Virus record (IMG/VR): IMGVR_UViG_2734482790_000004
Source: a virus
Lineage: Duplodnaviria; Heunggongvirae; Uroviricota; Caudoviricetes
Strand: one strand, 5' to 3'
Length of the DNA: 64,000 nt
Positions 9,002 through 40,045 of this stretch are shown piece by piece (the first letter of the stretch is position 1; each line of letters opens with the position of its first letter). The notes below the pieces were generated by a model, which had not been told where the DNA came from, ran no database searches, and was given only the letters and a program-made list of their open reading frames with translations. Both the position numbers and the translations under genes were made by a program.

Positions 9002-9296
9002 AATCGCAGCGCCATTAGGCGGAGATGCCATTATCGAATTTGATGATAATGAAGAAGTTTCCGGGCGTTTAAGCATTATCTCCGGTGACATTACCGAGGA
9101 CATGATCGCTGAAGCCATAGCTGGGGCAAATCCCAATAGCTATATGGGATTCGTTAACACCCTTGATGCTCCCGCAAGTGATGTTCTCCGAACGCTGCAT
9201 CTTTACGCTGGCTGGTTTGTCGATTGGCCAGCAGTAGAGGGTGGCGATGAGGACGACGATGATTTTGGGGATCATGTAGACCAGATCGTATATTAA
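8991..9296 (+). CDS. acidic hypothetical protein, distal gene of darA operon (101 aa)
   Basis: Overlaps ddrB stop; D/E-rich C-terminus. Confidence 0.4.
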   Translation: MQIKIAAPLGGDAIIEFDDNEEVSGRLSIISGDITEDMIAEAIAGANPNSYMGFVNTLDAPASDVLRTLHLYAGWFVDWPAVEGGDEDDDDFGDHVDQIVY

Positions 9297-9425
9297 CTCC
9301 CTGATAGTGCACAAATAATCTGTTCTGATATGTTAATTGTGTACTTAAAGTAAACGCGTAGTGGCTTGCTTTAGGTTATGGAAGCAAGCTATTGCCTAAT
9401 ATGTTAGATCAAAAAATTTTAATTT

Positions 9426-10214
9426 TTGCGTTTCGCTCACCACATATTGAACACTTTAGCCGATCTTTTAATTCTTCCAGAGTCAATCCTGAAGCTACAG
9501 TTTGGTGGAGATACCTGGACTCAGACTGATGTATTTATGACCCAGCGTGCTACTGGCGTCGCGACCTATCGTAACAATGATTTCTTCGGCTTGGTTGATG
9601 GTCTGAACTTTGCTTTGCAGTATCAGGGTAAAAATGATAGTGCTGCAAAAGTGAACAACTGGAAAGGCCGCGACGTAGTTGAATCTAATGGTGATGGCTT
9701 CGGTCTGTCAGCTACTTATGATTATGAAGGATTTGGCATTGGCGCAACTTATGCAAAATCTGACCGTACTGATGGACAGGTATCCTATGCTAAAGCCCCT
9801 CTGAATCTGAATGCCTCTGGTAAAACTGCTGAAGTATGGGCTACGGGCCTGAAATATGATGCAAACAACATTTACCTGGCTACAACTTATTCTGAAACTC
9901 AGAATATGACAGTCTTCGGTGATGACCATATCGCGAACAAGGCGAAAAACTTTGAAGCCGTTGCTCAATACCAGTTTGATTTCGGCCTGCGTCCGTCCAT
10001 CGCTTACCTACACTCTCGCGGTGAAAATATTGGTGCGTTCGGTAACCAGGATCTGGTTGAATACATCGACGTGGGCGCGACTTATTACTTTAACAAAAAT
10101 ATGTCCGCTTTCGTTGACTACAAGATCAACCTGATTGATGAAAGTGAATTTACCAAAACATCTGAGGTTGCAACCGACAACATCGTTGCTGTTGGTATGA
10201 CCTACCAATTCTAA
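9426..10214 (+). pseudogene. 5'-truncated OmpC/OmpF-family porin gene fragment
   Basis: Translation from about nt 9500 has the porin C-terminal beta-barrel pattern and ends VAVGMTYQF (porin C-terminal signature); N-terminal part of a roughly 360-aa porin is absent; ORF-track start MRFAHH is not a real porin start. Confidence 0.75.
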
Positions 10215-10289
10215 TTTTGGTAGGTAAGAATATGCGGGAAGGGAGTGATGTCACTGCCCGCATATAGGTGGCACCCTCATGCCACCTTT

Positions 10290-10314
10290 GAAGAGGCAAT
10301 AAAATTGCCTCTTC
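10290..10314 (+). terminator. stem-loop after porin fragment (GAAGAGGCAAT aaa ATTGCCTCTTC)
   Basis: Perfect 11-bp inverted repeat followed by a weak T tract. Confidence 0.4.
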
Positions 10315-10369
10315 TCAATTTAACTTCATGTTATTTATTACCTTTTTATTAATTTGAAACTCTATTGTT

Positions 10370-10396
10370 GGGGCGCTTTGTTGCGCCCATTTTTTT
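10370..10396 (+). terminator. rho-independent terminator
   Basis: GGGGCGC tttgtt GCGCCC followed by ATTTTTTT. Confidence 0.7.
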
Positions 10397-10447
10397 ACAC
10401 CAATTAGGTAAAGTTATTTTTAAGTAATCGAGCAACTTTCAGCCCTC

Positions 10448-10936
10448 TCAAAATGGAATATCGTCTTCAAAGTCCATTGGAGGTTCGCTATTGGCGTTGC
10501 TCTGAGGTTTACTGCCACCGCTGTATTGCTGGTGGTTTTGAGGTTGGTTTGACTGCCCCCAGCCATTTGAGAATTGTGAATCGTCGCGGCGAGCGCCGAT
10601 CATTTGCATGGTGCCGCCCTGGCTGACGATAATTTCCGTCGTGTAACGATCTACACCGGCGTCATCTGTCCACTTACGGGTTTTAAGTTTCCCTTCGATG
10701 TAGACCTGAGAACCTTTTCGTAAATACTCACTCGCAATTTCAGCAAGTTTCCCGAACAAAACGACTCTATGCCATTCTGTTTGCTCTTTCTGTTGGCCCG
10801 TTTGCTTGTCGCGCCATGATTCATTTGTTGCGATGCTTAGTCTTCCGACCGTTCCGCCATTTGGTATATACCTGATCTCCGGGTCTTGCCCCAGGGTACC
10901 AATCAGGATGACTTTGTTTACACCGCGTTGTGCCAC
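10448..10936 (-). CDS. ssb: single-stranded DNA-binding protein (162 aa)
   Basis: OB-fold SSB sequence with acidic C-terminal tail DFEDDIPF. Confidence 0.9.
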
Positions 10937-10956
10937 TTTTCTTACCCAATAAAATA

Positions 10957-10973
10957 AATTAATTAGAGCAATA
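10957..10973 (-). promoter_or_regulatory. C1 operator-like site (AAATTAATTAGAGCAAT)
   Basis: 16/17 match to reverse complement of P1 C1 operator consensus ATTGCTCTAATAAATTT; in ssb/lyz intergenic region. Confidence 0.55.
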
Positions 10974-11105
10974 ATGTATATCTTTGAAACGTAGCTAACA
11001 AGTGATTTGCATTATCCTGTGTCTTCTAAAGGGATCGAGTCAGTCGGTATTGGCTGTGAATGGGTGTTTGTCCTGGAGCGTAAAAAATTCGCTTATGAGG
11101 TCTTT

Positions 11106-14751: not shown

Positions 14752-17700
14752 ATGAACAAGCTATCTATGGGTGTGTTTCGCTGTTCAAGTGTCAGCGAAA
14801 TATTGAAATACATTAGGGCAATAACATCTCACCGAGCGCCGATTAAATACGGCGTGGAAAAGGTGGAAGGCAAAAGCTATGACCGACTGCGCCGGGAGGC
14901 GAATCAGAAGGCGATAGATTTGCTTAATTCGCTGGTGGACGGCGCGACACTGACAGATGAACAGCGCCAGATCCTGGCCGGGTACACTGGTGAAGGCGGC
15001 ATTGGCGGGTCCGTCTCCGAATATTACACACCAAAGCCTATCGCTGAAGGTGTCTGGGAGATCATGAAGCTCTACGGCGCGGACGTAGGTAACACTCTGG
15101 AACCATCGGCGGGAACCGGCGTTTTTAATGAGACAAAACCGGTTGGTACGGTGATGACCGCGACTGAGATCAGCAGTGTTTCCGGTCGTATAAACCAGTT
15201 GTTACACCCGGAAGACAGCGTACAGATTTCCCCGTTCGAACAGCTGGCTATAAACACGCCTAACGATTCATTCGACCATGTTGTGGGTAACGTTCCGTTC
15301 GGCGGTCGTGATAACACACGCAACATCGATAAGCCTTACGCAGAAGAAACGGACATGGGGTCTTACTTCATGCTCCGCATGCTGGACAAGATAAAACCTG
15401 GCGGATTCATGTGTGTGATTGTGCCGCCGTCCATTGTTTCAGGTTCAAACATGAAACGGTTACGCCTGCGCCTATCACGGAAAGCTGAATTTCTTGGTGC
15501 CCACCGCTTGCCTACCGGTACTTTTGACGCAAACGGGACCAGTACAGTTGTTGATGTGGTGCTGATGCGCAAACATCCGGCAGAGATGGCTGAGAAAATC
15601 CCCCTGGTGGATGAAAGCACTCTCGAATCGGCAAATGTGCTTTGGCCAACGTTTATTTCTGGCAAGTGGTTTGAAAAGGACGGCCGCCGGTTTGTTCATG
15701 GCACCCAGGAAAAGGGCTTCCAGGGGCGTATTGAGGTTCGTGCCGACGGTCAGATTGATAACCAGGCTCTTAAAGCGAAGCTGATTCATCGTTTCGAAAG
15801 CCGTATCGACTGGTCTTTGCTCGATATGGCTGAACCGTCACCGACCGCAGACGTTGTTGGTGAAGGGGAAATGCGCCTGATTAATGGCGTATGGCAAAAA
15901 TATGCTGGTGGTCGCTGGATTGAAGCTGATGCAGGGAAGGAACTTAAGATCGATGCTGCCAGTTATGGCGCGGATAGCTGGGAGGCTCTTCAGCGTAACC
16001 TGACTACAACAGAAGGCCGTCTCGGCATGACATTTACCCAGATGGCAAATGTCCGCGATAAGTACACCACATCAATCAGCGACGATATGGTGCAGCTGGT
16101 GGACTGGATTAACAGCCAGCCTGAAAAATACCGTGAACGCTTGTATCGCGGGGCGATGATTGGCCGGATGTTAATTGAATATCAGGACATGAAGGCCGCC
16201 GGGCATAGTGCTGAACAAATCGAACAGCAGCGCCTTTCTCTGGTATCCCGTTTGCAGGCAGAGATTGACCGTTTTGGTAACCCCGGTCGCGGTCCGATAG
16301 CGAAATTATCGGGGAGCGGTGCGCGCGCCTGGTTTGCTTTCCGTGGTGCAATTAAGCTGGATGGCACTATTTCTGACGAGCTGACAGGAAAACTGGTTAC
16401 GCATGATTCCAGCGCCAGTTATGACTCCACCAGCTATCAGGACACCCTGCGTTATCTCTACAGTGATCTCACTCGCGATCCAATCCAGCTCGATGATTTC
16501 CGCCTTGCGTTTACCGGCGAACTGCCAGCCAGTGATGACGAGTTGCTTAATTTATTGGCCAGCACCCCTGGCATTGCGGTTTCACCGTATGGCGGGATTG
16601 TTCCGTTCGCCCGCGCCACCAGCGGCGACATTAACGAGATAGTGGCTCCAAAACAGGAATTCCTCGCCACGCTCCCCGACGGTCCAGTAAAGAACAACGT
16701 CCTTAATCAGCTGGCAGCGATCGAAGAGAAGCGCATCAAGACGCCAGCAGAGAATATCCGCTTTAAGCTCAATAGCCGTTGGTTCGACCGTTCCGTCATT
16801 CTGGAGTTTTTGCAGGAAAACGGCTATCCGGATCTGCGCTATGTGCAGTCAGTGCAGCTGGAAGGCGACGAAATGGTTTCTGACACCTATCACGGTGGTG
16901 ATGGCCTGTTCGTCGGGCACCGATACGGTGTCGTCCAGCGTAAGGATAAAGAAACAGGCGAGATCCGCTACGAGTGGGACCGTAAATCAGGTGAAAACGC
17001 GACCGGGTTCCCGGCACAGCTGGAAAAGTATCTCAATGGTGCGCGTATCGGTGGCAAAGATAGCGCGACGGCGAACGGCTACCGCGAGCAGATGGCACTG
17101 CTTGAGGACCAGTTCAATAAGTGGATCAAGACGCACGATCGCTACGATGAGCTGGTTGCTAAATACAACGATGTGTTCAATAGCAATATCCCGTATGAAC
17201 ACTCTGGCGATCCGCTTGGGTTGAAGGGATTAAGCGGTAAGCGCCAGCCATTTGATTACCAGAATAGCGAGGTGCGCCGACTGTCCGAAGATGGGCGCGG
17301 CATCCTGGGCTTCGGCACCGGGCTGGGTAAAACCACGACCGCGCTGGCGCTTGAGGCGTTCAACTATGAGAACGGTCGCTCCACCCGTACTGCGTATGTA
17401 GTGCCTAAATCAGTGCTGGAAAACTGGTATTACGAAGCAAAAGAATTCCTGAGTGAAGAGGCATTCAGTAACTACCTGTTCGTCGGTCTTGATGTGCTGA
17501 TGGATGGCGATCAGATTCGCCAGGTGCAGGTGCTCGATGAGAACGGTAAACCTGTTCTTGGTACTGATGGCACTCCAGTTATGCGCGATGCTCTTAAGCT
17601 GGCAGATGAAGCCACTATCACGGCGCGGATGAACGCGATCCCGCACTCAAATTACCGTGCAGTCGTGTTTACCAAAGAACAATACGCCCGCATTCCGCTA

Positions 17701-20700
17701 CGTGATGACACCGTAGATGAGCATGCACAGGATATGCTTTATGACTTCGTTGCCGCCGGACGCGTAGCCAGCGCAATGGACTCCGACTCCCACCGCAAAG
17801 AGGCCGCGCGTCGCCGGGTATTGTCGGAGTATTCAGATACCGGCACCGAAAAAGCAGAGAAGTATCCGTACTTTGAGGATATGGGCTTCGATAGTGTGAT
17901 CGCCGACGAAGGCCACAACTACCGCAATAGCTATAAAAATGGTCGCGAAGCGTCACAGCTAGCCTATCTGCCCACCAGCGCGGTAGCGCAATCGGCGCGA
18001 GATATGGCAATTAAAAACGCGTACCTGATGAAAAAGAATGGTGGGCGCGGGCCGGTTCTCCTGACTGCAACGCCAGTCGTTAACACCCCGATCGATGCAT
18101 ACAACATGCTTTCTCATGTTCTGCCGAAGGAATACTGGCAGAACATGGGGATCTACGGTCCTGATGACTTCGTTAAATTCTTCGGCAAGACCAGGCTGGA
18201 AACGGTACAGAAAATTAGCGGTGAAGTTGAAGAAAAAATGGCGCTGGTGGGCTTTGAAAACCTTGATGCGCTGCGCGGTATATTCCATCGCTGGGTAACG
18301 CTTAAAACGGCGGAAGACGTTAAGGATACCGTGGAGATCCCGGAGCTGGACGAACACCAGCAGGATGCACCACTTACTGAAGAACAACTGGCGGCGTATG
18401 AAGAATTGCGTCAGCAGGCGGAAGCGGCGGCCAAAGCCAACAATGGCGTAACGACCTCGGTCAATGAAGACGGCGTGATTGAGCACGAGAAAGCCCGTCC
18501 GATCTTCTCAATAATCAGGGATATGGACCGCGTATGTACTGACATGGACCTGTACTATCGCCGGATCACCTATCGTTTCCTGCCGGAGTACGCCGATGCG
18601 GTGCAGCAGCTGGCGGACAGTTTGCCTAAACAAGCCACCAGCGAAGACGACGACAGTGATGATTCAATCACGCAGCAATCGCAATACTCCCTGATAGATA
18701 AGGGCGAGTTTATTCAGTTGCAGGTTCCGGAAGCGTTCGAGCAGGAAGTGAATAAGCGCCTGGCCAGGTTTGGCATTGACGAACAGACCGTAACTCACCC
18801 CGTTACGCCCAAATACGCGAAGCTGATTGCCACGCTGAAGGAGTTTTTCCCGGAAGGTAAGCAAATCATCTTCACCGATGAAAAAACGCAGCACCAGAAG
18901 CTCAAGCGCATTATCTGCAATGCTCTTAACCTTGAACCTTCAAAGGTGGGGATACTGAATGCTCAGACGGTTGCCGAGGCAGGTAAAACCGGTAAGAAAC
19001 TGAAAGCGGTTAAACCGCCGAAAGAGTTACCGGATGAACCAACAGATGCACAGATAGCGAAATACAACGAGCAAATGGCTCTGTATGACGCCTATATCGC
19101 GCAGCAAAATGAAATGTCGTTGGGCGGTCTGGAAAAGATTGCAGCCGACTTCCAGGAGGGCCGGACTCCGATCATCATCTGCAACAAAAAGGCAGAAGTG
19201 GGTATCAACCTGCATCGAGGAACGACTGACATCCATCATCTGACGTTGCCATGGACTCCAGCCAGTATTGCGCAACGAAACGGTCGCGGTGCCCGAGTTG
19301 GCTCCAACCGTGCAAGCGTTCGCGTTCACTACTACTGCGGCAAGGGGTCTTTCGATGAATACCGACTGAAGACGCTGAAGCGTAAAGCAGGCTGGATCTC
19401 CGATATCCTCCGTTCAGATAAGTCAGAAATGGAGAACGCCGACGCCAACGATATGATCGAAATGCAGATGTATACCGCGAAGGATGACGGCGAACGTCTG
19501 GCAATGATGCAGGTTCAAATGGATAAGGCGAAAGCTGCGAAACGCGCTCGCCAGAAAGAACAGGCTACTATCGACCTTCAGAACTACATCAAGGCGCAGC
19601 ACGCAGCTGGTGAGGATGTGGAGGTACTTACCGCTGAATTGGAGCGAAGCAAAGCGGAACTTGAAAAGACCACCGCCGACGTCGCCAAATTCAAACAGGC
19701 GGTAATGGCCAAAGCAGCTGATAACGCAGACTGGAAAGCCCGCTGGGGTAGCGTCCATCACACAGACCGTATGTTGTTAGCACAGTATCGCGCGTCGTTG
19801 AAAAGCGCCATTCAGCGCAAGGCTAATATCTCTCAGGCCATCTCCCGCTATGAGAAATTATTGAACCGTACTCAGAAGGCCGCGACGGATATCAAACGCC
19901 TGCGCCCGCTGGTGGAGGATGCAATAAATAAAGGCATTCTGGATGTTGATCCTGATCTGGTTAACCATGCGAATGAGTTCCTTGTTATCGGCGATCGCTC
20001 ATGGCGTGTAGGCCAATACTATGATTGTGCCGGTGATATCGTTCGCATTAAGTCGCTGGACTTCGACAGCCAGCGCGCAGACGTGGAGATCATCTTTACC
20101 TTCAAAGGCACCAAATCGGGTAACTGGGATGTGAAGACGCTGGATAAACAGGTTGATGTAACTCCCGATGAAGATGCTGTTATGCAGAAAATCAGTGGTG
20201 GCGTCTCCATCGCCGGGATTAACGACATCGTTTCCTGTGACGATTTCTACCGTTTCCAGCAGCGCGGCATGATCAAAATCACTGACTCATACGGCGTTCA
20301 GACTACAGAGTCAGGCTATAGCATTGATTTTGTTGGTACCTATACGGACCCACTGAAGCATGCGGTTTACCCGGATCGCCGTGACGGCGCGCTGAAGTCG
20401 TCAATTGCAAAATGGGTGCTTGGTATGATGTCGGAAGGGAATAACCGCCAGATCCGTTCGGCAGAAGCATTCCTGGTTGAACTGTTTGGCTCCAATTATG
20501 GCGATGTAATCGCGTCATACGGAGATACGCTATCCCCTGAAGCACTTCAGGAGAAAATAGCGGATGCGATCGCCAGAATGCCGGAGAAAACAAGCCAGGG
20601 GGCTACTCGTAACGGGGATTCTGAACTTGAAGTCACCAATGCCATTTTCGGTACCAATGAGTTCCGGGCGTCAGATTATGAGATCACCACAGCACAGTTT

Positions 20701-21519
20701 GGCACCATTGGCATTTACAGCAATAAAGCCGAGATCAAGCAGGCAATGGACGCAGCAAGCGCGCGCATCGCAGCAGAACGGGAAGCCAATCTGAATCATG
20801 CAGTCGCCGCGCTGACTCAATCGTGGGTAACAGCAATCAGGGAGGCCGCCACCACAGGGAAAATCACACCTGCAATAGCGGATGTCGTAAACGACGGCTC
20901 TAAATTTATGGATGCCTATCAAATGGATGCGGTGAAGTTGCCATCAGCCTATGGTCAACTCAGCTATCGCATGACCTACAACCTGGTATCAATGTTTTCC
21001 GACCTTGCCATCCTTGGGCTGGTGGATCTTAACGAGGTTACGCCGGAATTGCTCAGCATGCGCAAGAATCATGTGGAGATATTGCAGAGAATTAACACGG
21101 TTCTTGCCGGGCGCACCGATGAAGAGAAACAGGCCGACGCTGATCGGATAAACCTGGCCCTTGGCAACATCACGGAGGAAGAGATTGCCGCCAGAAACGA
21201 GAAACAAGAAGAGTTATCATCAATACAGGGTGATGCCACCAGCATAGCTCAGTCTCTTGGTCTGAATTATCGCGTATCCACCGCCGACCTGAAGATGATG
21301 TACGCACCAAAATTCGCCGCTGGCGAGGTATTTGGGCTTCAGGAAGCCTCAGGCATGAAAGGCGTTCTTTTCCGTGCGAAAGACGCAATCAAGGCGAAAT
21401 TCGGCGCTCGCTGGCTGCCAGCGAAGGCGAAGAACAGCGATTTCCCGGGTAACTGGTGGATTATCGAGACAAAACACAACGTGGCGGACGTTCTGGCCGT
21501 CATCCAACAATACGCATAA
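14752..21519 (+). CDS. darB: DarB giant antirestriction protein (2255 aa), methyltransferase plus helicase domains
   Basis: Exact 2255-aa length with AAGGA RBS; helicase motifs (GFGTGLGKT, VIADEGHNYRN); matches P1 DarB architecture. Confidence 0.85.
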   Translation: MNKLSMGVFRCSSVSEILKYIRAITSHRAPIKYGVEKVEGKSYDRLRREANQKAIDLLNSLVDGATLTDEQRQILAGYTGEGGIGGSVSEYYTPKPIAEGVWEIMKLYGADVGNTLEPSAGTGVFNETKPVGTVMTATEISSVSGRINQLLHPEDSVQISPFEQLAINTPNDSFDHVVGNVPFGGRDNTRNIDKPYAEETDMGSYFMLRMLDKIKPGGFMCVIVPPSIVSGSNMKRLRLRLSRKAEFLGAHRLPTGTFDANGTSTVVDVVLMRKHPAEMAEKIPLVDESTLESANVLWPTFISGKWFEKDGRRFVHGTQEKGFQGRIEVRADGQIDNQALKAKLIHRFESRIDWSLLDMAEPSPTADVVGEGEMRLINGVWQKYAGGRWIEADAGKELKIDAASYGADSWEALQRNLTTTEGRLGMTFTQMANVRDKYTTSISDDMVQLVDWINSQPEKYRERLYRGAMIGRMLIEYQDMKAAGHSAEQIEQQRLSLVSRLQAEIDRFGNPGRGPIAKLSGSGARAWFAFRGAIKLDGTISDELTGKLVTHDSSASYDSTSYQDTLRYLYSDLTRDPIQLDDFRLAFTGELPASDDELLNLLASTPGIAVSPYGGIVPFARATSGDINEIVAPKQEFLATLPDGPVKNNVLNQLAAIEEKRIKTPAENIRFKLNSRWFDRSVILEFLQENGYPDLRYVQSVQLEGDEMVSDTYHGGDGLFVGHRYGVVQRKDKETGEIRYEWDRKSGENATGFPAQLEKYLNGARIGGKDSATANGYREQMALLEDQFNKWIKTHDRYDELVAKYNDVFNSNIPYEHSGDPLGLKGLSGKRQPFDYQNSEVRRLSEDGRGILGFGTGLGKTTTALALEAFNYENGRSTRTAYVVPKSVLENWYYEAKEFLSEEAFSNYLFVGLDVLMDGDQIRQVQVLDENGKPVLGTDGTPVMRDALKLADEATITARMNAIPHSNYRAVVFTKEQYARIPLRDDTVDEHAQDMLYDFVAAGRVASAMDSDSHRKEAARRRVLSEYSDTGTEKAEKYPYFEDMGFDSVIADEGHNYRNSYKNGREASQLAYLPTSAVAQSARDMAIKNAYLMKKNGGRGPVLLTATPVVNTPIDAYNMLSHVLPKEYWQNMGIYGPDDFVKFFGKTRLETVQKISGEVEEKMALVGFENLDALRGIFHRWVTLKTAEDVKDTVEIPELDEHQQDAPLTEEQLAAYEELRQQAEAAAKANNGVTTSVNEDGVIEHEKARPIFSIIRDMDRVCTDMDLYYRRITYRFLPEYADAVQQLADSLPKQATSEDDDSDDSITQQSQYSLIDKGEFIQLQVPEAFEQEVNKRLARFGIDEQTVTHPVTPKYAKLIATLKEFFPEGKQIIFTDEKTQHQKLKRIICNALNLEPSKVGILNAQTVAEAGKTGKKLKAVKPPKELPDEPTDAQIAKYNEQMALYDAYIAQQNEMSLGGLEKIAADFQEGRTPIIICNKKAEVGINLHRGTTDIHHLTLPWTPASIAQRNGRGARVGSNRASVRVHYYCGKGSFDEYRLKTLKRKAGWISDILRSDKSEMENADANDMIEMQMYTAKDDGERLAMMQVQMDKAKAAKRARQKEQATIDLQNYIKAQHAAGEDVEVLTAELERSKAELEKTTADVAKFKQAVMAKAADNADWKARWGSVHHTDRMLLAQYRASLKSAIQRKANISQAISRYEKLLNRTQKAATDIKRLRPLVEDAINKGILDVDPDLVNHANEFLVIGDRSWRVGQYYDCAGDIVRIKSLDFDSQRADVEIIFTFKGTKSGNWDVKTLDKQVDVTPDEDAVMQKISGGVSIAGINDIVSCDDFYRFQQRGMIKITDSYGVQTTESGYSIDFVGTYTDPLKHAVYPDRRDGALKSSIAKWVLGMMSEGNNRQIRSAEAFLVELFGSNYGDVIASYGDTLSPEALQEKIADAIARMPEKTSQGATRNGDSELEVTNAIFGTNEFRASDYEITTAQFGTIGIYSNKAEIKQAMDAASARIAAEREANLNHAVAALTQSWVTAIREAATTGKITPAIADVVNDGSKFMDAYQMDAVKLPSAYGQLSYRMTYNLVSMFSDLAILGLVDLNEVTPELLSMRKNHVEILQRINTVLAGRTDEEKQADADRINLALGNITEEEIAARNEKQEELSSIQGDATSIAQSLGLNYRVSTADLKMMYAPKFAAGEVFGLQEASGMKGVLFRAKDAIKAKFGARWLPAKAKNSDFPGNWWIIETKHNVADVLAVIQQYA

Positions 21520-21552: not shown

Positions 21553-21993
21553 ATGGCCACACTATCTGATACAATAAAACCGAATAAAACATATCTTGAG
21601 GCGGTACTCCGTACAGCGTTGTTAGGAAAGACAGAAGACGAATACGTTGATTTCTTCCTGTCAGGGCTACGCGGGCGATTACTGAAAAATCCCCGCCTGT
21701 ACCGCAGCTATGGTCCATACTGGCCGGAAATTAAAAAATTATTACTGGAGCGCGGTTATGGTAATTTCGGTCGTCTCGTTGACCGTGACGTTCGCAAAAT
21801 TTACCGTTATGACCGCCCGGCGCTAACACTCATAGCCGCGACGCTCTACAGCCAGGAGCGTTTTGATAATGGTCAGATATACTCAGCCTGGCATTTACTG
21901 CCAGTGCCTGAAGAAGTTGACGACCAGGACTATGAGTTTGAGTCTTACGATTTGGAAGTTGAAGCCTTGGCACAGTCTGGAGAGAAAACTTGA
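21553..21993 (+). CDS. ulx: small protein downstream of darB, Ulx-like (146 aa)
   Basis: Position immediately after darB; symbol from recalled P1 order. Confidence 0.45.
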   Translation: MATLSDTIKPNKTYLEAVLRTALLGKTEDEYVDFFLSGLRGRLLKNPRLYRSYGPYWPEIKKLLLERGYGNFGRLVDRDVRKIYRYDRPALTLIAATLYSQERFDNGQIYSAWHLLPVPEEVDDQDYEFESYDLEVEALAQSGEKT

Positions 21994-22238
21994 AAAAGCG
22001 ATACTACACAGTAAAGCATGGGACGCTACGAGCATTACAAGAGTTTGCTGACAAGCATAACGTTGAGGTGCGCAGGGAAGGGGGAAGTAAAGCTCTGCGC
22101 ATGTACCGTCCGGACGGGAAATGGCGGACGGTCGTCGATTTCAAAACAAACAGTGTTCCCCAGGGCGTCCGCGACCGGGCATTCGAAGAATGGGAGCAGA
22201 TCATCATAGATAACGCATTGCTTCTGAATGCTGATTAA
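21990..22238 (+). CDS. lxc: small basic protein, Lxc-like (82 aa)
   Basis: ATGA overlap with preceding gene; size and position as P1 lxc. Confidence 0.45.
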   Translation: MKKRYYTVKHGTLRALQEFADKHNVEVRREGGSKALRMYRPDGKWRTVVDFKTNSVPQGVRDRAFEEWEQIIIDNALLLNAD

Positions 22239-22242
22239 GAAC

Positions 22243-22270
22243 TCTCCGGCCTAGGGAGATTAGGCCGGAG
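22243..22270. terminator. perfect 10-bp inverted-repeat hairpin (CTCCGGCCTA gggagat TAGGCCGGAG)
   Basis: Lies between convergent lxc and the SIR2-like gene; no strong T-run. Confidence 0.45.
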
Positions 22271-22568
22271 ATAAATATACTATATAAACTTAGATACAAT
22301 ATCGTGAATCTGTTGTAGCGGGATATCTTCCATCTCATTCTTAATAAGAGAGCGGTTAGATGCTGTCAGTGAAGGCCATTTTGTTTTCCAGGCTAGATAT
22401 GCTCGCCATGAGTAGCCTGTTTCGTAAGGTTTATTCATATAAGTCATTGAGTGTTCAACCGCATGTATGTATTTTTTCTCAAAATTGGTTCCTTTTACTT
22501 CAAATAAACTACCGAAATAAATAAGCCATTTTGCCAGGTGTTCATACTGCTCCCATGCGCCAGGCTTT

Positions 22569-23585
22569 TTAGTAAGTTCTATTTTTTTTATCTATTATAT
22601 TACAAAAAACATTTAATACATTTTTATTATTCCAGCTATATCCAGATGATGAAATGGAGGAAATGATATGATAAAAAGAATCCTCTAGCTTCAAGAACTC
22701 TATTTTATACTCTCTTCCGTTTTTTATTACCGATTTGATTGAGTGCCTCAATTTGTCTTTTATTTTTTTTGCTTCTGGAATTTTATCGTTAAGTTTTCTA
22801 AAGAAATCAGATACCTCTGTTTTATCTATAACCCTAACCCCATAGCAGGAAAAATAGTAATCTTTAATAGGTTGCAATAGTTCCCCTCGGGAAACAAGGA
22901 AAATATTGGAGGACATTACGTTGTCCCGTGAAAATACCTTATATTCATTTATAATAGCCTTTAGGTTCGCGTCACTTAGAGAATAGCCAAGGATAACAAT
23001 AGTGTTTTCATGTAGAACTGTGCTTAGTTTATTAGAAAAGTAAGAATTACCATTTATAAATCTGAAATAATCCTCGCTAGTAACAACCATGTCTGATGGG
23101 GAGTCTATAGAACCGTGAACATGGTAGACTTTAACCTCACAATTATATTTTGGAATTGGCAGGCCGGGGGTGATTGTACACGTTCGATTCTCTCCAGCCA
23201 GCTTTTCTGCTAACTTGTCATAATTTGTCGTAATTACTTTAAATGTGTTTTCTTTGAAAAAGTCTTGAATATATTCAATTGATGGATCAAGTTCGATTGA
23301 GGCTATGATTTTCTCAATCTCTTGGTAAATATTTTTCCCCGAAAGTATAAATTTTAGTGCAATAACCTGAGCAGCTTCTTCAAGGCTAAGGTCTTTTGCT
23401 TTTCCATCAGGAAATAATTCCTCTTTGAGTGAGTCACCATCCTTCAATAAACCGCACAGTTGCTCCAATAAAGATTGCCAACTTGGGGCTTTATCATCAG
23501 AAACAGCCTTTGAAAATCCAGTGCCTGTAAGAAAGCACAGCCTATGTGTAGCCGCTGCATAGGCAATTTCTATATACTCGCTCAT
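22569..23585 (-). CDS. SIR2-like (SIR2_2 family) putative NAD-depleting defence effector (338 aa)
   Basis: Motifs FLTGTGFS, TTNYDKL, YHVHGSI and ILGYSLSD match the SIR2_2 family pattern (GAGxS / TTNYD / HxHG / GYSxxD); GGAG RBS; gene and surroundings are markedly AT-rich. Confidence 0.7.
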   Translation of the reverse strand: MSEYIEIAYAAATHRLCFLTGTGFSKAVSDDKAPSWQSLLEQLCGLLKDGDSLKEELFPDGKAKDLSLEEAAQVIALKFILSGKNIYQEIEKIIASIELDPSIEYIQDFFKENTFKVITTNYDKLAEKLAGENRTCTITPGLPIPKYNCEVKVYHVHGSIDSPSDMVVTSEDYFRFINGNSYFSNKLSTVLHENTIVILGYSLSDANLKAIINEYKVFSRDNVMSSNIFLVSRGELLQPIKDYYFSCYGVRVIDKTEVSDFFRKLNDKIPEAKKIKDKLRHSIKSVIKNGREYKIEFLKLEDSFYHIISSISSSGYSWNNKNVLNVFCNIIDKKNRTY

Positions 23586-23641
23586 TACTTACTCCATTTA
23601 CTTATAGTTCTACGGAGAAGTATACCCTAATGCATTGACGT

Positions 23642-24283
23642 TTATAGATAATTTCCTTTTCCTGTTAATACTCCCTTAGGCACCTGTTTTTGTGCCAGCG
23701 TTTGGGTGCCGCGAATTATGTTAATCAGAGGGCTTAGTAACGATGGTTCCTGGCGTGCCTCAACTTCTCCAGCCATTGCCCTGATGTAGTCGGCGCTGGC
23801 AACGTTGTTGTATTCCGTCGCAAAGCAACATAGTAACGTCAGAACATGCTCTGTCGTTATTTCGCTCCAGTTGATGTTGAAAAATTCATCGCCTTTTTTA
23901 TCGTGTTCGGAATCGAAGATGCTTTGGTGGAGGATGTATTTGCCGGATTCCTTGCGCGGTAACTTGATTGCTTTCTGGCGTTCCAGCTCCTTATAAATCT
24001 GCATTGCCTCAATTAGTACCGGCCTGCCGTTCATGAAGGGATCGCGCAACCTTACACGCTGGCCAACTCGACCAGTAATAAAGCTGTTTTCCTCTTCCAC
24101 CAGCACGATAAAACCCTTTTCCTCTTTTTCTCGCAATTCGCGCAGCAGCTGGAGTTCCATATCGCGGCGGCGTTCAGGGTAGCTGGTCCGCTCAGCCATT
24201 ATTAGCTCATTGTTGATCCATGCAGCAGTCATTGACGCCGGTTTGCCGACGCTCATCGAAACAACGCATATTTTCTTATCCAT
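23642..24283 (-). CDS. mat: Mat-like protein (ORF track start 24430; likely start at MDKKICVV)
   Basis: Position between ref and the res/mod slot as in P1. Confidence 0.4.
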   Translation of the reverse strand: MDKKICVVSMSVGKPASMTAAWINNELIMAERTSYPERRRDMELQLLRELREKEEKGFIVLVEEENSFITGRVGQRVRLRDPFMNGRPVLIEAMQIYKELERQKAIKLPRKESGKYILHQSIFDSEHDKKGDEFFNINWSEITTEHVLTLLCCFATEYNNVASADYIRAMAGEVEARQEPSLLSPLINIIRGTQTLAQKQVPKGVLTGKGNYL

Positions 24284-24472
24284 AGCGCCCCCTACAAAAA
24301 AGAAAAGCCACCAGCGGCGGCTTAGCAATACAACTGAAGGTAGCGCCCGGTACTCAGACTGTGCCGTCCATGGAATATTTGAAAAGGGATCCATCCGTAC
24401 CGGGCATGTGATGATTCTGACTGAAGTCACTTGTCAGTTGTCAATTATTTCAGATTAAAAATAATATATTTA

Positions 24473-25643: not shown

Positions 25644-26675
25644 CTAATCGCCATCTTCCAGCAGGCGCACCATTGCCCCCGTTTCACTATCCAGGTTACG
25701 AATGTAGTTCATGACAATATTTACGTTGGTCCAGCCGCCAGCTTGCATGATCTCCGGTATAGAAACTCCGGCGCGGGCCATATCTCGCGCGGCACCGACA
25801 CGGGCACTATGTCCAGACCAGGCCAGGTATCGCTGACCAGAGTCATCTTTTGCCCCGTAAATCAATCGGTGAGTTGCTTCAAAAATCCCTTCCAGGGCGC
25901 GAGTTGATAGCTGGCTGGTGGATGATGGCGCGGCAACACCATTTTTTCTGACGCGGCAAAACAGGTAGTTATTCGGATCATCAGCTACACCAGAGACAGA
26001 AATCCATCGCTCAACCAGTTTAGTTACCCCCAGGCTAAGTGCCTTCTCTACACCAGCGGTGCTAACCAGCGTTTTCGTTCTGCCAATATGGATTAACATT
26101 CTCCCACCGTCAGTACGTGAGATATCTTTAACCCTGATCCTGGAAATTTCGGCTATACGTAACAGGGTGTTATAAGCAATCCCCAGAAATGCCAGATTAC
26201 GTATATCCTGGCAGCGATCGCTATTTTCCATGAGTGAACGAACCTGGTCGAAATCAGTGCGTTCGAACGCCAGTGCCTGTTTTGCACGTTCACCGGCATC
26301 AACGTTTTCTTTTCGGATCCGTCGCATGACCAGTGAAACAGCATTGCTGTCACTTGGTCGTGGCAGACCGGACCGACGATGAAGCATATTTAGCTGGCCC
26401 AAATGTTGCTGGATAGTTTTCACTGCCAGACCACGCGCCTGAAGATATAGAAGATAATCGCGAACATCTTCAGGTTCTGCGGGAAACCACTTCCGGTTAT
26501 TCAACTTGCACCATGCCGCCCACGACCGGCAAACGGACAGAAGCATTTTCCAGGTATGCTCAGAAAACGCCTGGCGATCCCTGAACATGTCCATCAGGTT
26601 CTTGCGAACCTCATCACTCGTTGCATCGACCGGTAATGCAGGCAAATTTTGGTGTACGGTCAGTAAATTGGACAT
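25644..26675 (-). CDS. cre: Cre site-specific tyrosine recombinase (343 aa)
   Basis: Translation MSNLLTVHQNLPALPVDATSDEVRKNLMDMFRDRQAFSEH...LEDGD matches P1 Cre as recalled. Confidence 0.97.
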   Translation of the reverse strand: MSNLLTVHQNLPALPVDATSDEVRKNLMDMFRDRQAFSEHTWKMLLSVCRSWAAWCKLNNRKWFPAEPEDVRDYLLYLQARGLAVKTIQQHLGQLNMLHRRSGLPRPSDSNAVSLVMRRIRKENVDAGERAKQALAFERTDFDQVRSLMENSDRCQDIRNLAFLGIAYNTLLRIAEISRIRVKDISRTDGGRMLIHIGRTKTLVSTAGVEKALSLGVTKLVERWISVSGVADDPNNYLFCRVRKNGVAAPSSTSQLSTRALEGIFEATHRLIYGAKDDSGQRYLAWSGHSARVGAARDMARAGVSIPEIMQAGGWTNVNIVMNYIRNLDSETGAMVRLLEDGD

Positions 26676-27093
26676 TTAACACTCAGATAATGGTTTTAAG
26701 TAAAGTGTACAGGATCGGCTCTGCCTTTACCTGTTTATGGTTCTCGTCATAGAAACGCCAGCGACCGCGCGTGCGTTCTATTTTCTCTTCACCGCGCGAT
26801 AATGACAGTTGACAACTATCACGATCAAACCCTTTTGCCCGCCAGTAACCACGGTTTTTCTCAAGCTCAAGATGAGTGGACACTTTAGCAGCTGAATATC
26901 CCATTTTTCACCTCTGATTGATTGGTGGTGCTAAGTGCGCTACGCGAAATCTGGAGCACTAACACTGCCAACTTTTCACAGATTTTACGTAGCGCAAACT
27001 TGATCAAATGATCAAGTGATCACTATTTGACCTGATAAGGTATTGAACTGTATGGATTTACAGGTAAATTGATCATGTTCAATAACCCTTAAT

Positions 27094-27127
27094 ATAACTT
27101 CGTATAATGTATGCTATACGAAGTTAT
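27094..27127. other. loxP recombination site
   Basis: Exact 34-bp ATAACTTCGTATA ATGTATGC TATACGAAGTTAT. Confidence 0.97.
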
Positions 27128-27170
27128 TAGGTCCGAAGAGGAGTTTACGTCCAGCCGCGCATAAAAATCA

Positions 27171-27187
27171 AGAATTATTAGAGCAAT
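27171..27187 (-). promoter_or_regulatory. C1 operator-like site (Op99-region)
   Basis: AGAATTATTAGAGCAAT, 15/17 match to reverse complement of consensus. Confidence 0.5.
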
Positions 27188-27253
27188 AAAATTTGAGAGA
27201 AAAATCCCACTCCACCAACCAAATACTGGATTGTTTTTCATAGTTGTTTGACA

Positions 27254-27270
27254 ATTGCTCTAATAAATTA
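27254..27270 (+). promoter_or_regulatory. C1 operator (Op99-type) overlapping a promoter upstream of coi/c1
   Basis: ATTGCTCTAATAAATTA (16/17 to consensus) preceded by TTGACA and followed by TATAGT. Confidence 0.7.
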
Positions 27271-27508
27271 TAGTTTTGCCGCCGTTTCGTAATACGACTT
27301 TGGACTCACTACTTAATGTGTCTTCAGCGTTGTAGAGCGGCTCAGAAGGAAATGAGCAAACAGGGAAACCTTATACAACGGCATTACCGCTATGCATTGC
27401 TCATCTTACACACAGCGCAATGTTGATAGATAACCCCAGCATGGAACATGGGTGAAACAGTAGGTCAGAGCTTCAGGCTCTGTGTTGTCAATACAGTGAG
27501 GCATAATT

Positions 27509-27718
27509 ATGGCTTTCATTCCACCAACCATCGACGATGTTAGACATTGCTCTAACGCTTTATCTGTAGACCCCGCCGAAACCGACGCTGCTCGCGCCAT
27601 TGCTGAACACTACTCAAAGATATCCAATCAGGAGTACCGCATCACCCCAGACGACCTGGATGATCTCACTGACACAATCGAATATCTCATGGCAACTAAC
27701 CAGTTAGACTCACAATAA
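27509..27718 (+). CDS. coi: Coi-like C1 inactivator (69 aa)
   Basis: 69-aa ORF directly upstream of c1 in the same orientation. Confidence 0.55.
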   Translation: MAFIPPTIDDVRHCSNALSVDPAETDAARAIAEHYSKISNQEYRITPDDLDDLTDTIEYLMATNQLDSQ

Positions 27719-27828
27719 ATGCACTAATAAATCTATTATTTTTGTCTGTTCCCTCTATAATATAGGTCAGTAATGACCGGTTTTCTCAGCCGGGCGTTAT
27801 TGGCCATGTCAATTCTGGAGGAGGATCA

Positions 27829-28680
27829 ATGATAAATTATGTCTACGGCGAACAACTGTACCAGGAGTTCGTCAGCTTCAGGGATCTCTTTCTAAAAAAA
27901 GCTGTTGCACGCGCCCAACACGTTGATACAGCCAGCGACGGTCGTCCTGTACGCCCGGTTGTCGTTCTACCGTTCAAAGAAACTGACAGCATTCAGGCTG
28001 AAATTGATAAATGGACTTTAATGGCGCGGGAACTGGAACAGTACCCAGACCTCAATATCCCAAAGACTATTTTATATCCAGTGCCTAACATCCTTCGCGG
28101 TGTGCGTAAGGTTACAACTTATCAGACAGAGGCTGTGAACAGCGTCAACATGACCGCTGGCCGCATTATTCATCTGATTGATAAGGACATTCGCATCCAA
28201 AAAAGCGCGGGGATCAATGAGCACAGTGCGAAATACATAGAGAACCTGGAAGCAACAAAAGAGCTAATGAAGCAGTACCCGGAGGATGAAAAATTCCGTA
28301 TGCGCGTACACGGCTTTAGCGAAACAATGCTGCGCGTCCATTACATTTCCAGTAGCCCTAACTACAATGATGGTAAATCAGTTAGTTACCATGTGCCGCT
28401 ATGTGGCGTGTTTATCTGCGATGAAACTCTCCGAGATGGAATCATCATCAACGGTGAATTTGAGAAAGCAAAATTTAGCCTTTATGACTCTATAGAACCG
28501 ATCATCTGCGACCGCTGGCCGCAGGCAAAAATATATCGCCTGGCAGATATTGAAAATGTAAAAAAACAAATTGCCATCACTCGCGAAGAGAAAAAGGTCA
28601 AATCAGCCGCATCAGTTACGCGCAGGCGCAAAACTAAGAAGGGGCAGCCAGTAAACGACAACCCCGAAAGCGCGCAATAG
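27829..28680 (+). CDS. c1: C1 repressor of lysis (283 aa)
   Basis: 283 aa beginning MINYVYGEQLYQEF; next to loxP and pacB. Confidence 0.85.
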   Translation: MINYVYGEQLYQEFVSFRDLFLKKAVARAQHVDTASDGRPVRPVVVLPFKETDSIQAEIDKWTLMARELEQYPDLNIPKTILYPVPNILRGVRKVTTYQTEAVNSVNMTAGRIIHLIDKDIRIQKSAGINEHSAKYIENLEATKELMKQYPEDEKFRMRVHGFSETMLRVHYISSSPNYNDGKSVSYHVPLCGVFICDETLRDGIIINGEFEKAKFSLYDSIEPIICDRWPQAKIYRLADIENVKKQIAITREEKKVKSAASVTRRRKTKKGQPVNDNPESAQ

Positions 28681-34041: not shown

Positions 34042-35604
34042 ATGAAAATGACAAGTATTCAACAACGTGCAGAGCTTCATCGTCAAATCTGGCAAATTGC
34101 TAACGATGTCAGGGGTTCGGTCGATGGATGGGATTTTAAGCAATACGTTCTGGGCGCACTTTTCTACCGTTTTATCAGCGAAAATTTTTCCAGCTATATT
34201 GAAGCCGGTGATGACAGCATCTGTTATGCGAAACTGGATGACAGCGTAATTACTGATGACATTAAAGACGATGCCATCAAAACCAAAGGCTACTTCATCT
34301 ACCCAAGTCAGCTTTTCTGCAACGTAGCTGCGAAAGCAAATACCAATGACAGACTGAACGCAGATTTAAACAGCATCTTCGTTGCTATCGAAAGTTCTGC
34401 TTACGGTTATCCTTCAGAAGCAGACATCAAAGGTTTGTTTGCTGATTTCGATACCACCAGTAACCGCCTGGGTAACACCGTTAAGGATAAAAATGCCCGC
34501 CTGGCCGCGGTTCTGAAAGGGGTTGAAGGGTTAAAGCTTGGCGACTTTAACGAACATCAGATTGACCTGTTCGGCGATGCCTATGAGTTCCTGATTTCTA
34601 ACTATGCCGCGAATGCCGGTAAGTCAGGCGGCGAGTTCTTTACACCGCAGCACGTCTCTAAGCTGATTGCACAACTGGCTATGCACGGGCAGACCCACGT
34701 TAACAAAATCTACGACCCGGCAGCAGGTTCCGGTTCTCTGTTATTGCAGGCTAAAAAGCAGTTTGATGACCACATCATCGAAGAAGGTTTTTTTGGTCAG
34801 GAAATCAACCATACGACCTATAACCTGGCGCGTATGAACATGTTTTTGCACAACATCAACTACGACAAGTTTGATATCAAGCTGGGCAATACGCTGACTG
34901 AGCCGCACTTCAGAGATGAAAAACCGTTTGATGCCATCGTTTCTAACCCGCCGTATTCGGTGAAATGGATTGGCAGCGATGACCCGACGCTGATTAACGA
35001 TGAGCGTTTTGCCCCGGCTGGCGTTCTGGCCCCCAAATCCAAAGCTGACTTTGCGTTTGTATTACATGCGCTGAACTATCTTTCGGCCAAAGGTCGTGCT
35101 GCGATTGTCTGCTTCCCGGGTATTTTTTACCGTGGCGGCGCAGAGCAGAAAATCCGTCAGTATCTGGTCGATAATAACTATGTCGAAACCGTAATTTCAC
35201 TGGCTCCGAACCTGTTCTTTGGCACCACCATTGCCGTAAACATTCTGGTTCTGTCCAAACATAAAACGGATACCAACGTTCAGTTTATTGATGCCAGCGA
35301 ACTGTTCAAAAAAGAGACCAACAACAATATCCTGACCGATGCCCATATCGAACAGATTATGCAGGTATTTGCCAGCAAGGAAGATGTTGCTCATCTGGCA
35401 AAATCTGTCGCGTTCGAAGCCGTTGTCGCGAATGACTATAACCTGTCGGTGAGCAGCTATGTGGAAGCGAAAGATAACCGCGAAATTATCAATATTGCTG
35501 AACTGAATGCAGAGCTGAAAACCACGGTCAGCAAAATCGACCAGTTGCGTAAAGATATTGATGCAATTGTGGCTGAAATTGAAGGCTGCGAGGTGCAGAA
35601 ATGA
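34042..35604 (+). CDS. hsdM: type I (EcoR124-like, type IC) restriction-modification methyltransferase HsdM (520 aa)
   Basis: N6-adenine MTase motifs ([14 protein letters not shown]); N-terminus [22 protein letters not shown] as recalled for EcoR124I HsdM. Confidence 0.9.
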
Positions 35605-36807
35605 GCGAGTTGAGTTATCTGGAAAAATTGATGGATGGGGTTGAGGTTGAGTGGTTGCCACTCTCAAAAGTATTCAACTTAAGGAATGGTTATACACCGT
35701 CTAAAACTAAAAAAGAATTTTGGGCGAATGGTGATATACCTTGGTTCAGAATGGATGACATACGTGAAAATGGTAGAATTCTAGGGAATTCACTTCAAAA
35801 AAATTTCATCCTGCGCCGTAAAAGGGGGGAAACTATTTCCTGAAAATTCAATATTAATATCAACGTCGGCAACAATTGGTGAGCATGCTTTAATCACTGT
35901 ACCTCATCTAGCCAATCAAAGGTTTACATGTTTGGCTTTAAAAGAGTCTTATGCTGATTGCTTTGATATTAAATTTTTATTTTACTACTGTTTTTCTTTA
36001 GCTGAGTGGTGCCGAAAAAACACAACGATGTCCAGTTTTGCGTCTGTTGATATGGATGGATTCAAAAAATTTTTAATCCCTCGCCCCTGCCCGGATAATC
36101 CGGAAAAATCCCTTGCCATCCAGTCTGAAATCGTTCGGATTCTGGATAAGTTTACTGCACTTACCGCTGAGCTTACCGCTGAGCTTAATATGCGTAAAAA
36201 ACAGTACAACTACTATCGCGACCAGTTGTTGAGTTTTAAAGAGGGTGAGGTTGAGTGGAAGACTTTGGGAACATTTGCAGATAATTTTGATTCTCTTAGA
36301 AAACCAATAACTAGTGGATTAAGGGAGACTGGAAATATTCCCTATTATGGTGCGTCAGGCATTGTTGATTACGTAAAAGATTATATTTTTGATGATGACC
36401 TGTTATTAATTTCTGAAGATGGTGCGAATCTTATTGCAAGAAATACCCCTATAGCTTTTAGCATTAGCGGTAAAACGTGGGTGAATAATCATGCTCATGT
36501 ACTTAAATTCAAAAACTACACTGAACAAAAATTTGTTGAATATTACTTAAACAATATCAATCTTACGCCGTACATATCAGGAGCAGCCCAGCCAAAGCTA
36601 AATAAGAAAAACTTAGAAAGTATCCGTATTCCTAATCCATCACTAAAAGAAAAAGAGCGGATTGTTACTATTCTGGATAAATTCGACACCCTGACTAACT
36701 CCATCACCGAAGGTCTCCCGCGTGAAATCGAGTTACGCCAGAAACAATACGAGTACTATCGTGATTTACTGTTCAGTTTCCCAAAACCTGAAACAGTCAG
36801 TAATTAA
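35601..36807 (+). pseudogene. hsdS: type IC specificity subunit HsdS interrupted by a 1-nt frameshift within TRD1
   Basis: 80-aa ORF (frame 0) and 291-aa ORF (frame +1) are both open across 35785-35840, which contains an A7 run (35797-35803) and a G6 run (35824-35829); central and C-terminal conserved regions and a TAEL x2 repeat are intact. Confidence 0.85.
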
Positions 36808-36928
36808 TTGACCATTGCTACCGACCGGGCCACCTTAACATCCGGTCTGTATATAGACTATTTTTTACACGCTGGAAGTCGCCCTTAAAGCTCTTCCGGC
36901 CCTTGCCAGACGGCACAAAGGATGCGCT

Positions 36929-39900: not shown

Positions 39901-40045
39901 CGCCACCGAAAATGGCACAGAATTAAACGAAACATTACCAAAACTTAGTCCGTTGAATCCGCAATATAAAACGAAAAAACAGGCAGTTTTCCAGAAAATC
40001 GTCTCGTTTATTGAGAAGTTTAAAGGCGTAGGCGGAAAAATATAG
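36929..40045 (+). CDS. hsdR: type I restriction endonuclease subunit HsdR (1038 aa)
   Basis: Superfamily-2 helicase motifs ([12 protein letters not shown]) and a 1038-aa length matching EcoR124I HsdR. Confidence 0.9.

Follow-up and report, generated by a model that had tools for sequence, protein, structure and literature searches.

A frameshifted SIR2 gene in the lxc-mat cargo slot of a P1-like phage-plasmid and the putative family of compact DSR-like sensors to which it belongs

Does the solitary SIR2-like gene found in an AT-rich insert of a P1-like phage-plasmid encode a working single-gene defence? The question is raised by a 64,000-nucleotide stretch of the viral record IMGVR_UViG_2734482790_000004 (Caudoviricetes), referred to here as the window, in which the interval between the backbone genes lxc and mat holds one recognisable gene. 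An earlier note, made from the sequence without database searches, had described this gene as a single intact open reading frame (ORF) of 338 aa and had proposed it as a candidate abortive-infection or anti-phage module. The ORF is indeed present on the minus strand (22569..23585), together with the FLTGTGFS, TTNYDKL, YHVHGSI and ILGYSLSD motifs noticed at the time; its product, however, proved to come from a frameshift-truncated allele of a 434-aa gene. The reading favoured here, to which we assign a probability of roughly two in three (0.68), is that the insert is a one-gene cargo cassette for a family of single-protein sensors of the DSR type with NAD-hydrolysing (NADase) activity, and that the copy in the window has been inactivated.

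When the minus strand was translated in all frames, coding was found to resume in another frame past a run of A residues and to continue down to position 22280. The gene thus extends over 22280..23585 (minus strand), being 1306 nt long in the window and 1305 nt (434 aa) when intact. Compared with plasmid NZ_CP122597, whose copy is intact (1305 nt; protein WP_064669538.1), it differs solely by one extra A at gene position 997, within a tract that is A8 in the window (22582..22589, minus strand; T8 on the plus strand) and A7 in intact copies. The resulting +1 shift after codon 334 leaves an ORF encoding residues 1-334 of the intact protein followed by NRTY, a product equal to WP_244461805.1. The stretch downstream of the tract (22280..22581, minus strand), which looks empty, is in fact the rest of the gene, now out of frame; according to its frame translation it corresponds to residues 335-434, which in intact copies form part of an alpha-solenoid. 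The last 100 residues are therefore lost from the window allele. They include 16 invariant positions of the family (A343, W344, Q346, Y347, W353, L354, S379, M380, M383, G390, S392, W393, W399, W403, N410 and R411), and their loss takes away five of the nine solenoid helices. The ∼90 uncharacterised C-terminal residues ascribed to the protein by the earlier note likewise turned out to be ∼180 in the intact form.

The intact form is by far the more common. In counts of contigs, the exact 434-aa reconstruction was present on 161 and the 338-aa form on only 3 or 4. The gene was found in 70 of 5,426 complete E. coli genomes (∼1.3%), nearly always in the lxc-mat slot, and 71 of its 72 places in those genomes are on plasmids. 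The only chromosomal copy, in APEC17 (NZ_CP178203.1, 3557902-3571206), is surrounded by P1-like genes in the order darB, ulx, lxc, SIR2, mat, ref, cre, c1. Among the 60 E. coli copies listed most measured 1305 nt, and the four full-length exceptions had 1304, 1304, 1306 and 1302 nt. Two of these four, from RM12579 and 07B21CPO001, were aligned; both are altered in a second A8 tract (22763..22770, minus strand), which has the correct length in the window, is A7 in RM12579 (A8 -> A7) and is A9 in 07B21CPO001 (A8 -> A9). The copies shifted at this tract are those of NC_017653.1 and NZ_JBWLLS010000002.1. RefSeq labels the 07B21CPO001 copy a 'frameshifted' pseudogene, while naming the intact gene 'SIR2 family NAD-dependent protein deacylase'; in RM12579 the shift breaks the gene into two annotated coding sequences of 274 aa and 137 aa. 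A separate observation is that phrog_35181 (156 positions) matches residues 279-434 only, and this PHROGs family may derive from frameshift fragments of the SIR2 gene.

A single-base difference in a homopolymer is the classic long-read error, and the extra A could accordingly be a fault of sequencing or assembly, the gene being intact in the real plasmid. However, the identical 1403-bp insert with A8 was found in the Logan assembly of SRR2239624, in that of ERR1619089 the sequence differs slightly but again has A8, and the 338-aa form exists as an NCBI protein record. Since the same A8 occurs in assemblies of other sequencing runs, the frameshift is probably real, and we regard an error as very improbable.

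If the frameshift is real, the 338-aa product might itself be a functional single-gene abortive-infection effector composed of a SIR2 domain and a short tail. It keeps the whole SIR2 domain with its catalytic motifs, and the occurrence of the allele in several assemblies indicates that it is not immediately lost. Against this stand the 100 missing residues with their invariant positions, the fact that no full-length member of the family ends there (full-length proteins have ∼400-480 aa and shorter hits are fragment-like), the pseudogene flag given by RefSeq to a comparably frameshifted copy, and the excess of more than 50 to 1 of the 434-aa form in the contig counts. A working truncated effector is therefore improbable. 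As five helices and 16 invariant positions have been removed, the copy in the window is judged inactive and is most likely a recently inactivated allele, a view drawn from sequence comparison. The annotation for the window should be a frameshifted gene of 1306 nt rather than a 338-aa protein.

Another possibility is that the poly-A tracts work as a reversible A7/A8 switch operated by slipped-strand events, or permit leaky frameshifting through slippage of RNA polymerase or the ribosome; low, tolerable expression of a costly NADase would be the result. Slippage on runs of A is established, and frame arithmetic indicates that a +1 slip of tRNA-Lys on A8 would restore the wild-type ...KKIELT... 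reading; moreover, each of the three frameshifted copies aligned has gained or lost one A in one of the two A7/A8 tracts, both directions being represented. However, conservation does not extend to these tracts: a 92%-identical allele is without the first one, and in a slot-mate of 57% identity the A7 runs lie elsewhere. Such runs are to be expected by chance in an AT-rich gene, a length of 7-8 is short for slippage to be efficient, and ∼5% of the listed copies are shifted. A switch or leaky frameshifting is therefore considered unlikely, and inactivation of the window allele is retained in what follows.

The reconstructed protein was used as a query and 663 homologues were recovered, the family being found mostly in Proteobacteria. 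The best 120 of these 663 were nearly all of 431-437 aa, with 54-61% identity and 93-100% of the query aligned. In an alignment of 58 sequences, invariant residues were found in both domains of the protein, those in the N-terminal half including GTGFS, TTNYD and H-V-HGS. The structure prediction that the earlier note had suggested as a check yielded a confident AlphaFold (AF2) model (predicted local distance difference test, pLDDT, 87; predicted template modelling score, pTM, 0.84), in which alternating strands and helices over residues 1-253 are followed by nine helices between residues 258 and 432; its SIR2 fold is nearest to those of DSR2, ThsA and KomC.

The N-terminal assignment was confirmed by profile search, the proposed SIR2_2 signature being significant: Pfam SIR2_2 (PF13289) matched with E 7.8e-24 and 84.8 bits (cut-off 24.5) over profile positions 3-141 of 141. 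PF13289, the AF2 model, the PDB profile search and Foldseek together delimit a SIR2_2-type domain, a putative NADase, at residues 1-255 (22821..23585, minus strand). Within it, the glycine-rich NAD-binding loop GTGFS occupies residues 21-25 (23511..23525, minus strand), with G21, T22, G23, F24 and S25 invariant in the 58 sequences. The motif TTNYD (residues 119-123; 23217..23231, minus strand), containing the putative catalytic Asn121, is also invariant and pairs with ITTNYD of DSR2. YHVHGS (residues 154-159; 23109..23126, minus strand), in which H155, H157, G158 and S159 are invariant, contains the putative catalytic His157 and pairs with VHG in DSR2. Among the PDB entries for DSR2 is a mutant, H171A, which we take to be a catalytically inactive form. 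The closest relatives are defence sirtuins: the PDB profile search returned DSR2 (2e-11; SIR2 domain, residues 11-257) and ThsA (8e-11), with TTNYD and VHG aligned, and the top Foldseek matches were DSR2, ThsA and KomC, all of them defence NADases. The model for canonical sirtuin deacylases such as CobB/Sir2 (presumably PF02146) was unmatched, PF13289 being the sole Pfam match at E up to 1. PADLOC matches (PDC-S25, ThsA, LmuA and Dsr2) were confined to the SIR2 part, and PADLOC models of the PD and Rst types provided no match to the Sir2 homologue of Vassallo et al. or to the SIR2 cargo of Rousset et al.

The remaining ∼180 residues are predicted by the model to be an all-alpha solenoid. A hidden Markov model (HMM) of this C-terminal domain found 98 representatives among 1.84 billion proteins; hits of at least 400 aa had it nearly all at about residues 255-450, and fusions to other effectors, sought with the same HMM, were not found. 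As the HMM finds nearly no other placement, the domain is private to the SIR2-solenoid architecture. A match to an OTU protease within it (E 0.08-0.1, below the cut-off) was set aside as noise. The domain also diverges faster than its neighbour. Comparison with the slot-mate gave 48% identity in the C-terminal domain, as opposed to 63% in the SIR2 domain; in a pair of 96%-identical alleles, one of them the APEC17 chromosomal copy, codons 256-434 have 12 non-synonymous and 3 synonymous changes, the figures for the SIR2 domain being 4 and 11. This small sample hints at diversifying selection or recombination in a putative sensor.

Is the protein one part of a larger system? The stand-alone status claimed for the gene held up: its neighbours in the window are lxc and mat, and a search for a conserved partner revealed none. 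For this search, seven contexts were first inspected by hand; loci from 63 different species were then examined and the 502 neighbour ORFs within 3.5 kb were clustered; no cluster was found in more than 3 of the 63 loci, and the most recurrent neighbours (3 loci) reflected Pseudomonas synteny or were dGTPases. The gene might still belong to a multi-gene system already known (Thoeris, SIR2-HerA, Lamassu or SPARSA), with its partner encoded elsewhere, given that the PADLOC ThsA and LmuA models match its SIR2 part and that a ThsB-like gene occurs once among the 124 nearest neighbours in other species. But these hits end at about residue 250, the C-terminal domain is neither SLOG nor the C-terminal region of LmuA, no partner is conserved across the 63 species, and the slot exchanges single genes on a constant backbone. 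We consider membership in such a system scarcely credible, and a single-protein sensor remains the preferred description.

Although no partner recurs, the gene often adjoins known defence genes: among the 124 nearest neighbours, at least 19 matched defence models strongly. These models were dGTPase (three times), mad3, mad8, PDC-S31, type I restriction endonuclease, NERD-UvrD, PD-T7-1, PD-T7-5, PDC-S66, AbiU, AbiD, ThsB (once), HamB and PDC-M23B. The Halomonas homologue lies amid HNH, HSDR_N and DUF87 genes, that of Stutzerimonas is placed after a NERD-UvrD helicase and that of Pantoea after a dGTPase-like HD protein; in Vibrio cholerae a GmrSD-like gene is found ∼4.7 kb downstream. Chromosomal relatives in E. 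coli are at the end of a lambdoid prophage, with an integrase adjoining in most of the places shown. The dGTPase-type HD protein (PADLOC dGTPase, best E 1e-107) directly adjoins the homologue in three unrelated species (Pantoea, Pasteurella and Halomonas), on either side of it; although it is the most frequent neighbour, this adjacency is probably co-location in defence islands. DUF2971 adjoins the SIR2 homologue in Stutzerimonas and accounts for 2 of the 124 nearest neighbours. Upstream genes of ∼200 aa in Halomonas and Pseudoalteromonas were considered as a partner and rejected, being unrelated to each other.

The gene had been placed where P1 carries its restriction-modification genes, and this is correct: in P1, mat is followed by res, then by mod (interrupted by IS5) and then by lxc. 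Comparison of the locus across P1-like phage-plasmids, another of the checks suggested, revealed variable cargo. PLSDB holds ∼700 plasmids with the same flanks, 65 of which have the SIR2 gene; the other occupants are RelA/SpoT, DUF2971, PIN, GNAT, IS1 or small hypothetical genes, or nothing. Single genes are swapped at the slot while the rest of the backbone stays constant. A second member of the SIR2-solenoid family (435 aa, 57% identity), the slot-mate mentioned above, occupies it in plasmid pO26_EH031_1 (NZ_AP027163.1). The DUF2971 protein in the slot of the Shigella plasmid NZ_CP055201.1 corresponds to phrog_1762, of unknown function, and DUF2971 proteins may be defence candidates. In SJ46 a RelA/SpoT gene sits in exactly the lxc-mat slot. 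CapRel, a fused toxin-antitoxin defence validated by experiment, comes from SJ46 (PMC9712102); as the RelA/SpoT gene is the only one of its kind seen at the slot in SJ46, we infer that it is CapRel. In P1-like elements the res-mod region already figures in the literature as a 'variable region' of low GC, with no description of it as a defence slot (PMC9603915).

The layout of the insert fits a cassette. The cargo runs from the lxc stop to the mat stop (22239..23641; 1403 bp, 35% GC, a one-gene segment), and its edges are sharp: the sequence diverges from those of RCS47 (empty slot) and SJ46 (RelA/SpoT gene) directly past the lxc stop and rejoins them at the mat stop. The AT-rich character noticed earlier was borne out, at 35% GC against 48-52% in the flanks; more exactly, the GC content is 35.0% over 22271-23641, 51.9% in darB-lxc, 48.5% in mat-cre and 48.3% in the whole window, and the insert contains the lowest-GC 1-kb bin of the window. 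A GGAG Shine-Dalgarno sequence, read directly from the DNA (23592..23595, minus strand), lies 6 nt before the ATG. At the other end, the GC-rich hairpin CTCCGGCCTA-N7-TAGGCCGGAG (22243..22271, minus strand) has the perfect 10-bp stem attributed to it (11 pairs with the flanking T/A) and a 7-nt loop. It is not a boundary element of the backbone: it lies 9 nt past the true stop (22280) and is terminator-like on the gene's strand, and as RCS47 and SJ46 have other hairpins at the same position, it belongs to the cargo cassette and not to the backbone. Terminator-like sites numbered 7, against 2.2 expected.

The backbone around the insert is that of a P1-like phage-plasmid. On one side are darB (14752-21519), ulx and lxc (21990..22238, plus strand), the latter with 97% DNA identity to the annotated P1 lxc over the matched part. 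Beyond the insert, on the opposite strand to lxc, lie mat (from 23642), ref and cre (25644-26675). The longest ORF for mat (23642..24430, minus strand) has a GTG start and 262 aa; annotated homologues measure 642 nt, most P1-like records giving 213 aa and P1 itself 250 aa, and the true start position is uncertain. An Rfam scan of the window returned only three tRNA genes, all on the plus strand and away from the insert (48507-48579, 48585-48657 and 50661-50733). Other low-GC bins (0.40-0.44), at 9001-11000, 27001-28000, 35001-37000 and 39001-40000, may be further variable or cargo regions of the P1-like backbone.

The mode of action proposed for the protein is modelled on those of DSR2 and DSR1. 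From a cassette made up of a ribosome-binding site, the gene and a terminator-like hairpin, inserted in the lxc-mat variable slot, an intact protein would be produced whose solenoid restrains the SIR2 enzyme and recognises some component of an incoming phage. Once that component is bound, NAD+ hydrolysis would be released, and the loss of NAD+ would abort the infection, thereby protecting the lysogen population and the resident phage-plasmid. For the intact family an abortive-infection function is plausible; for the copy in the window it is doubtful.

Several points weigh against this interpretation. No experimental study of the SIR2-solenoid family, or of SIR2 proteins in P1-like elements, was found in a search of mainly non-subscription literature, and the PANGU preprint, in which SJ46 is mentioned, has no bearing on the matter; the PHROGs family concerned, phrog_7567, is of 'unknown function', and no named system in PADLOC, NCBIfam or Pfam was matched beyond the common SIR2 domain. 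The fraction of defence genes among the neighbours is, in our judgement, far above that of random genes, with no formal background control behind the comparison. A sigma-70-like promoter was sought in the 56-nt spacer between mat and the SIR2 gene and none was found; expression in the lysogen, if any, may therefore depend on read-through from mat, for which the P1 record gives a C1-controlled promoter and a late promoter. Finally, the truncated allele persists in a lineage, and its presumed loss of function is deduced from conservation.

Some of these points would also suit a role outside defence, with the family acting for the mobile element as a protein deacylase or ADP-ribosyltransferase, for example in host takeover, addiction or regulation. 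The RefSeq name, 'NAD-dependent protein deacylase', agrees with this, a position right after mat with no promoter of its own would suit expression during lytic growth, and no experiment on the family was found in the literature. Yet the only profile match is SIR2_2, with canonical sirtuin models unmatched, and the closest relatives in sequence and fold are all defence NADases. Furthermore, the gene occurs outside phages too, in chromosomal defence-gene neighbourhoods of many species, and shares its slot with res/mod and with the RelA/SpoT gene of SJ46. A non-defence role is therefore also thought unlikely, and a DSR-like defence sensor, inactivated in the window, is still preferred.

A broader proposal is advanced tentatively, at somewhat less than even odds: that the intact family is a compact immune sensor (a 'mini-DSR') whose fast-evolving private solenoid senses a phage protein, that the slot is a hotspot for single-gene defences whose other occupants are new defence genes, and that homopolymer frameshifts are a cheap way of silencing a costly effector. 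If the intact family does defend, its members would be among the smallest sensor-plus-NADase proteins known and would offer a convenient model for the gating of a SIR2 enzyme by short helical repeats and for sensing. The window copy is broken, and the finding is of value chiefly for the intact family and for the hotspot. The latter is a well-defined, easily mined one-gene site in a very common phage-plasmid of E. coli and Salmonella, and its other cargo may include new defences travelling with the resistance genes that these elements spread.

How, then, does the family compare with known systems? Two comparisons concern the slot. EcoP1I, the type III restriction-modification system encoded by P1 res/mod, is defence cargo at the same place in P1, but it comprises two genes over ∼6 kb (including the IS5 of the P1 record), targets DNA and is encoded on the opposite strand. 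In SJ46 the RelA/SpoT gene is a single gene of similar size in the same slot and on the same strand as mat. CapRel(SJ46), a single-protein sensor-effector that has been validated, aborts infection (PMC9712102); the proteins are nevertheless unrelated, CapRel being a toxSAS pyrophosphokinase fused to an antitoxin-like sensor. Among SIR2 systems, Thoeris ThsA has a related SIR2 domain (PADLOC E 5e-18, PDB 8e-11), with the PADLOC match covering only model positions 106-215 of 478; its C-terminal SLOG/STALD domain binds a signal made by ThsB, whereas the 434-aa protein is predicted to have an all-alpha solenoid. No adjacent TIR-domain ThsB was found in the window slot, flanked as it is by lxc and mat alone, and the ThsB-like gene mentioned above was the single case among the nearest neighbours in the 63 species. 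The PADLOC SIR2 models of the HerA type gave weak partial matches (E 1e-6 or worse), and no HerA gene was present in the window slot or recurrent in those species. The match to LmuA of Lamassu was limited to model positions 21-221 of 433, and an LmuB-like (SMC) partner was not conserved, SMC_N being found in 2 of the 124 neighbours. As for SPARSA, no short Argonaute neighbour was seen in the slot or recurrently in the 63 species, nor any APAZ or pAgo among the PADLOC hits.

PDC-S25, the best PADLOC match (E 4e-25 to 2e-30), is a single-gene SIR2 candidate, although only positions 22-326 of 517 were matched, the C-terminal parts differ and PDC-S25 is itself just a candidate. DSR1 is a stand-alone SIR2 protein with a C-terminal sensor region, but has ∼1260 aa, and its NCBIfam model (NF041818) gave ∼22 bits against a cut-off of 1400. 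DSR2 of Bacillus subtilis, the best PDB match in sequence and fold, is also a single polypeptide with an N-terminal SIR2 domain containing TTNYD and VHG followed by alpha-helical repeats; two reports attribute the onset of its NAD+ depletion to binding of the phage tail tube by the alpha-solenoid domain at its C terminus (PMC11850899, PMC10981675). It differs in size and composition, with ∼1000 aa and MID plus CTD regions against 434 aa in the present family, and in the NCBIfam score (NF041819, 30-32 bits against 1400, in the SIR2 part only). While a SIR2 gene in a variable region of a phage-plasmid is unsurprising, the novelty lies in the private putative sensor domain and in the very compact size attained on a DSR-like plan.

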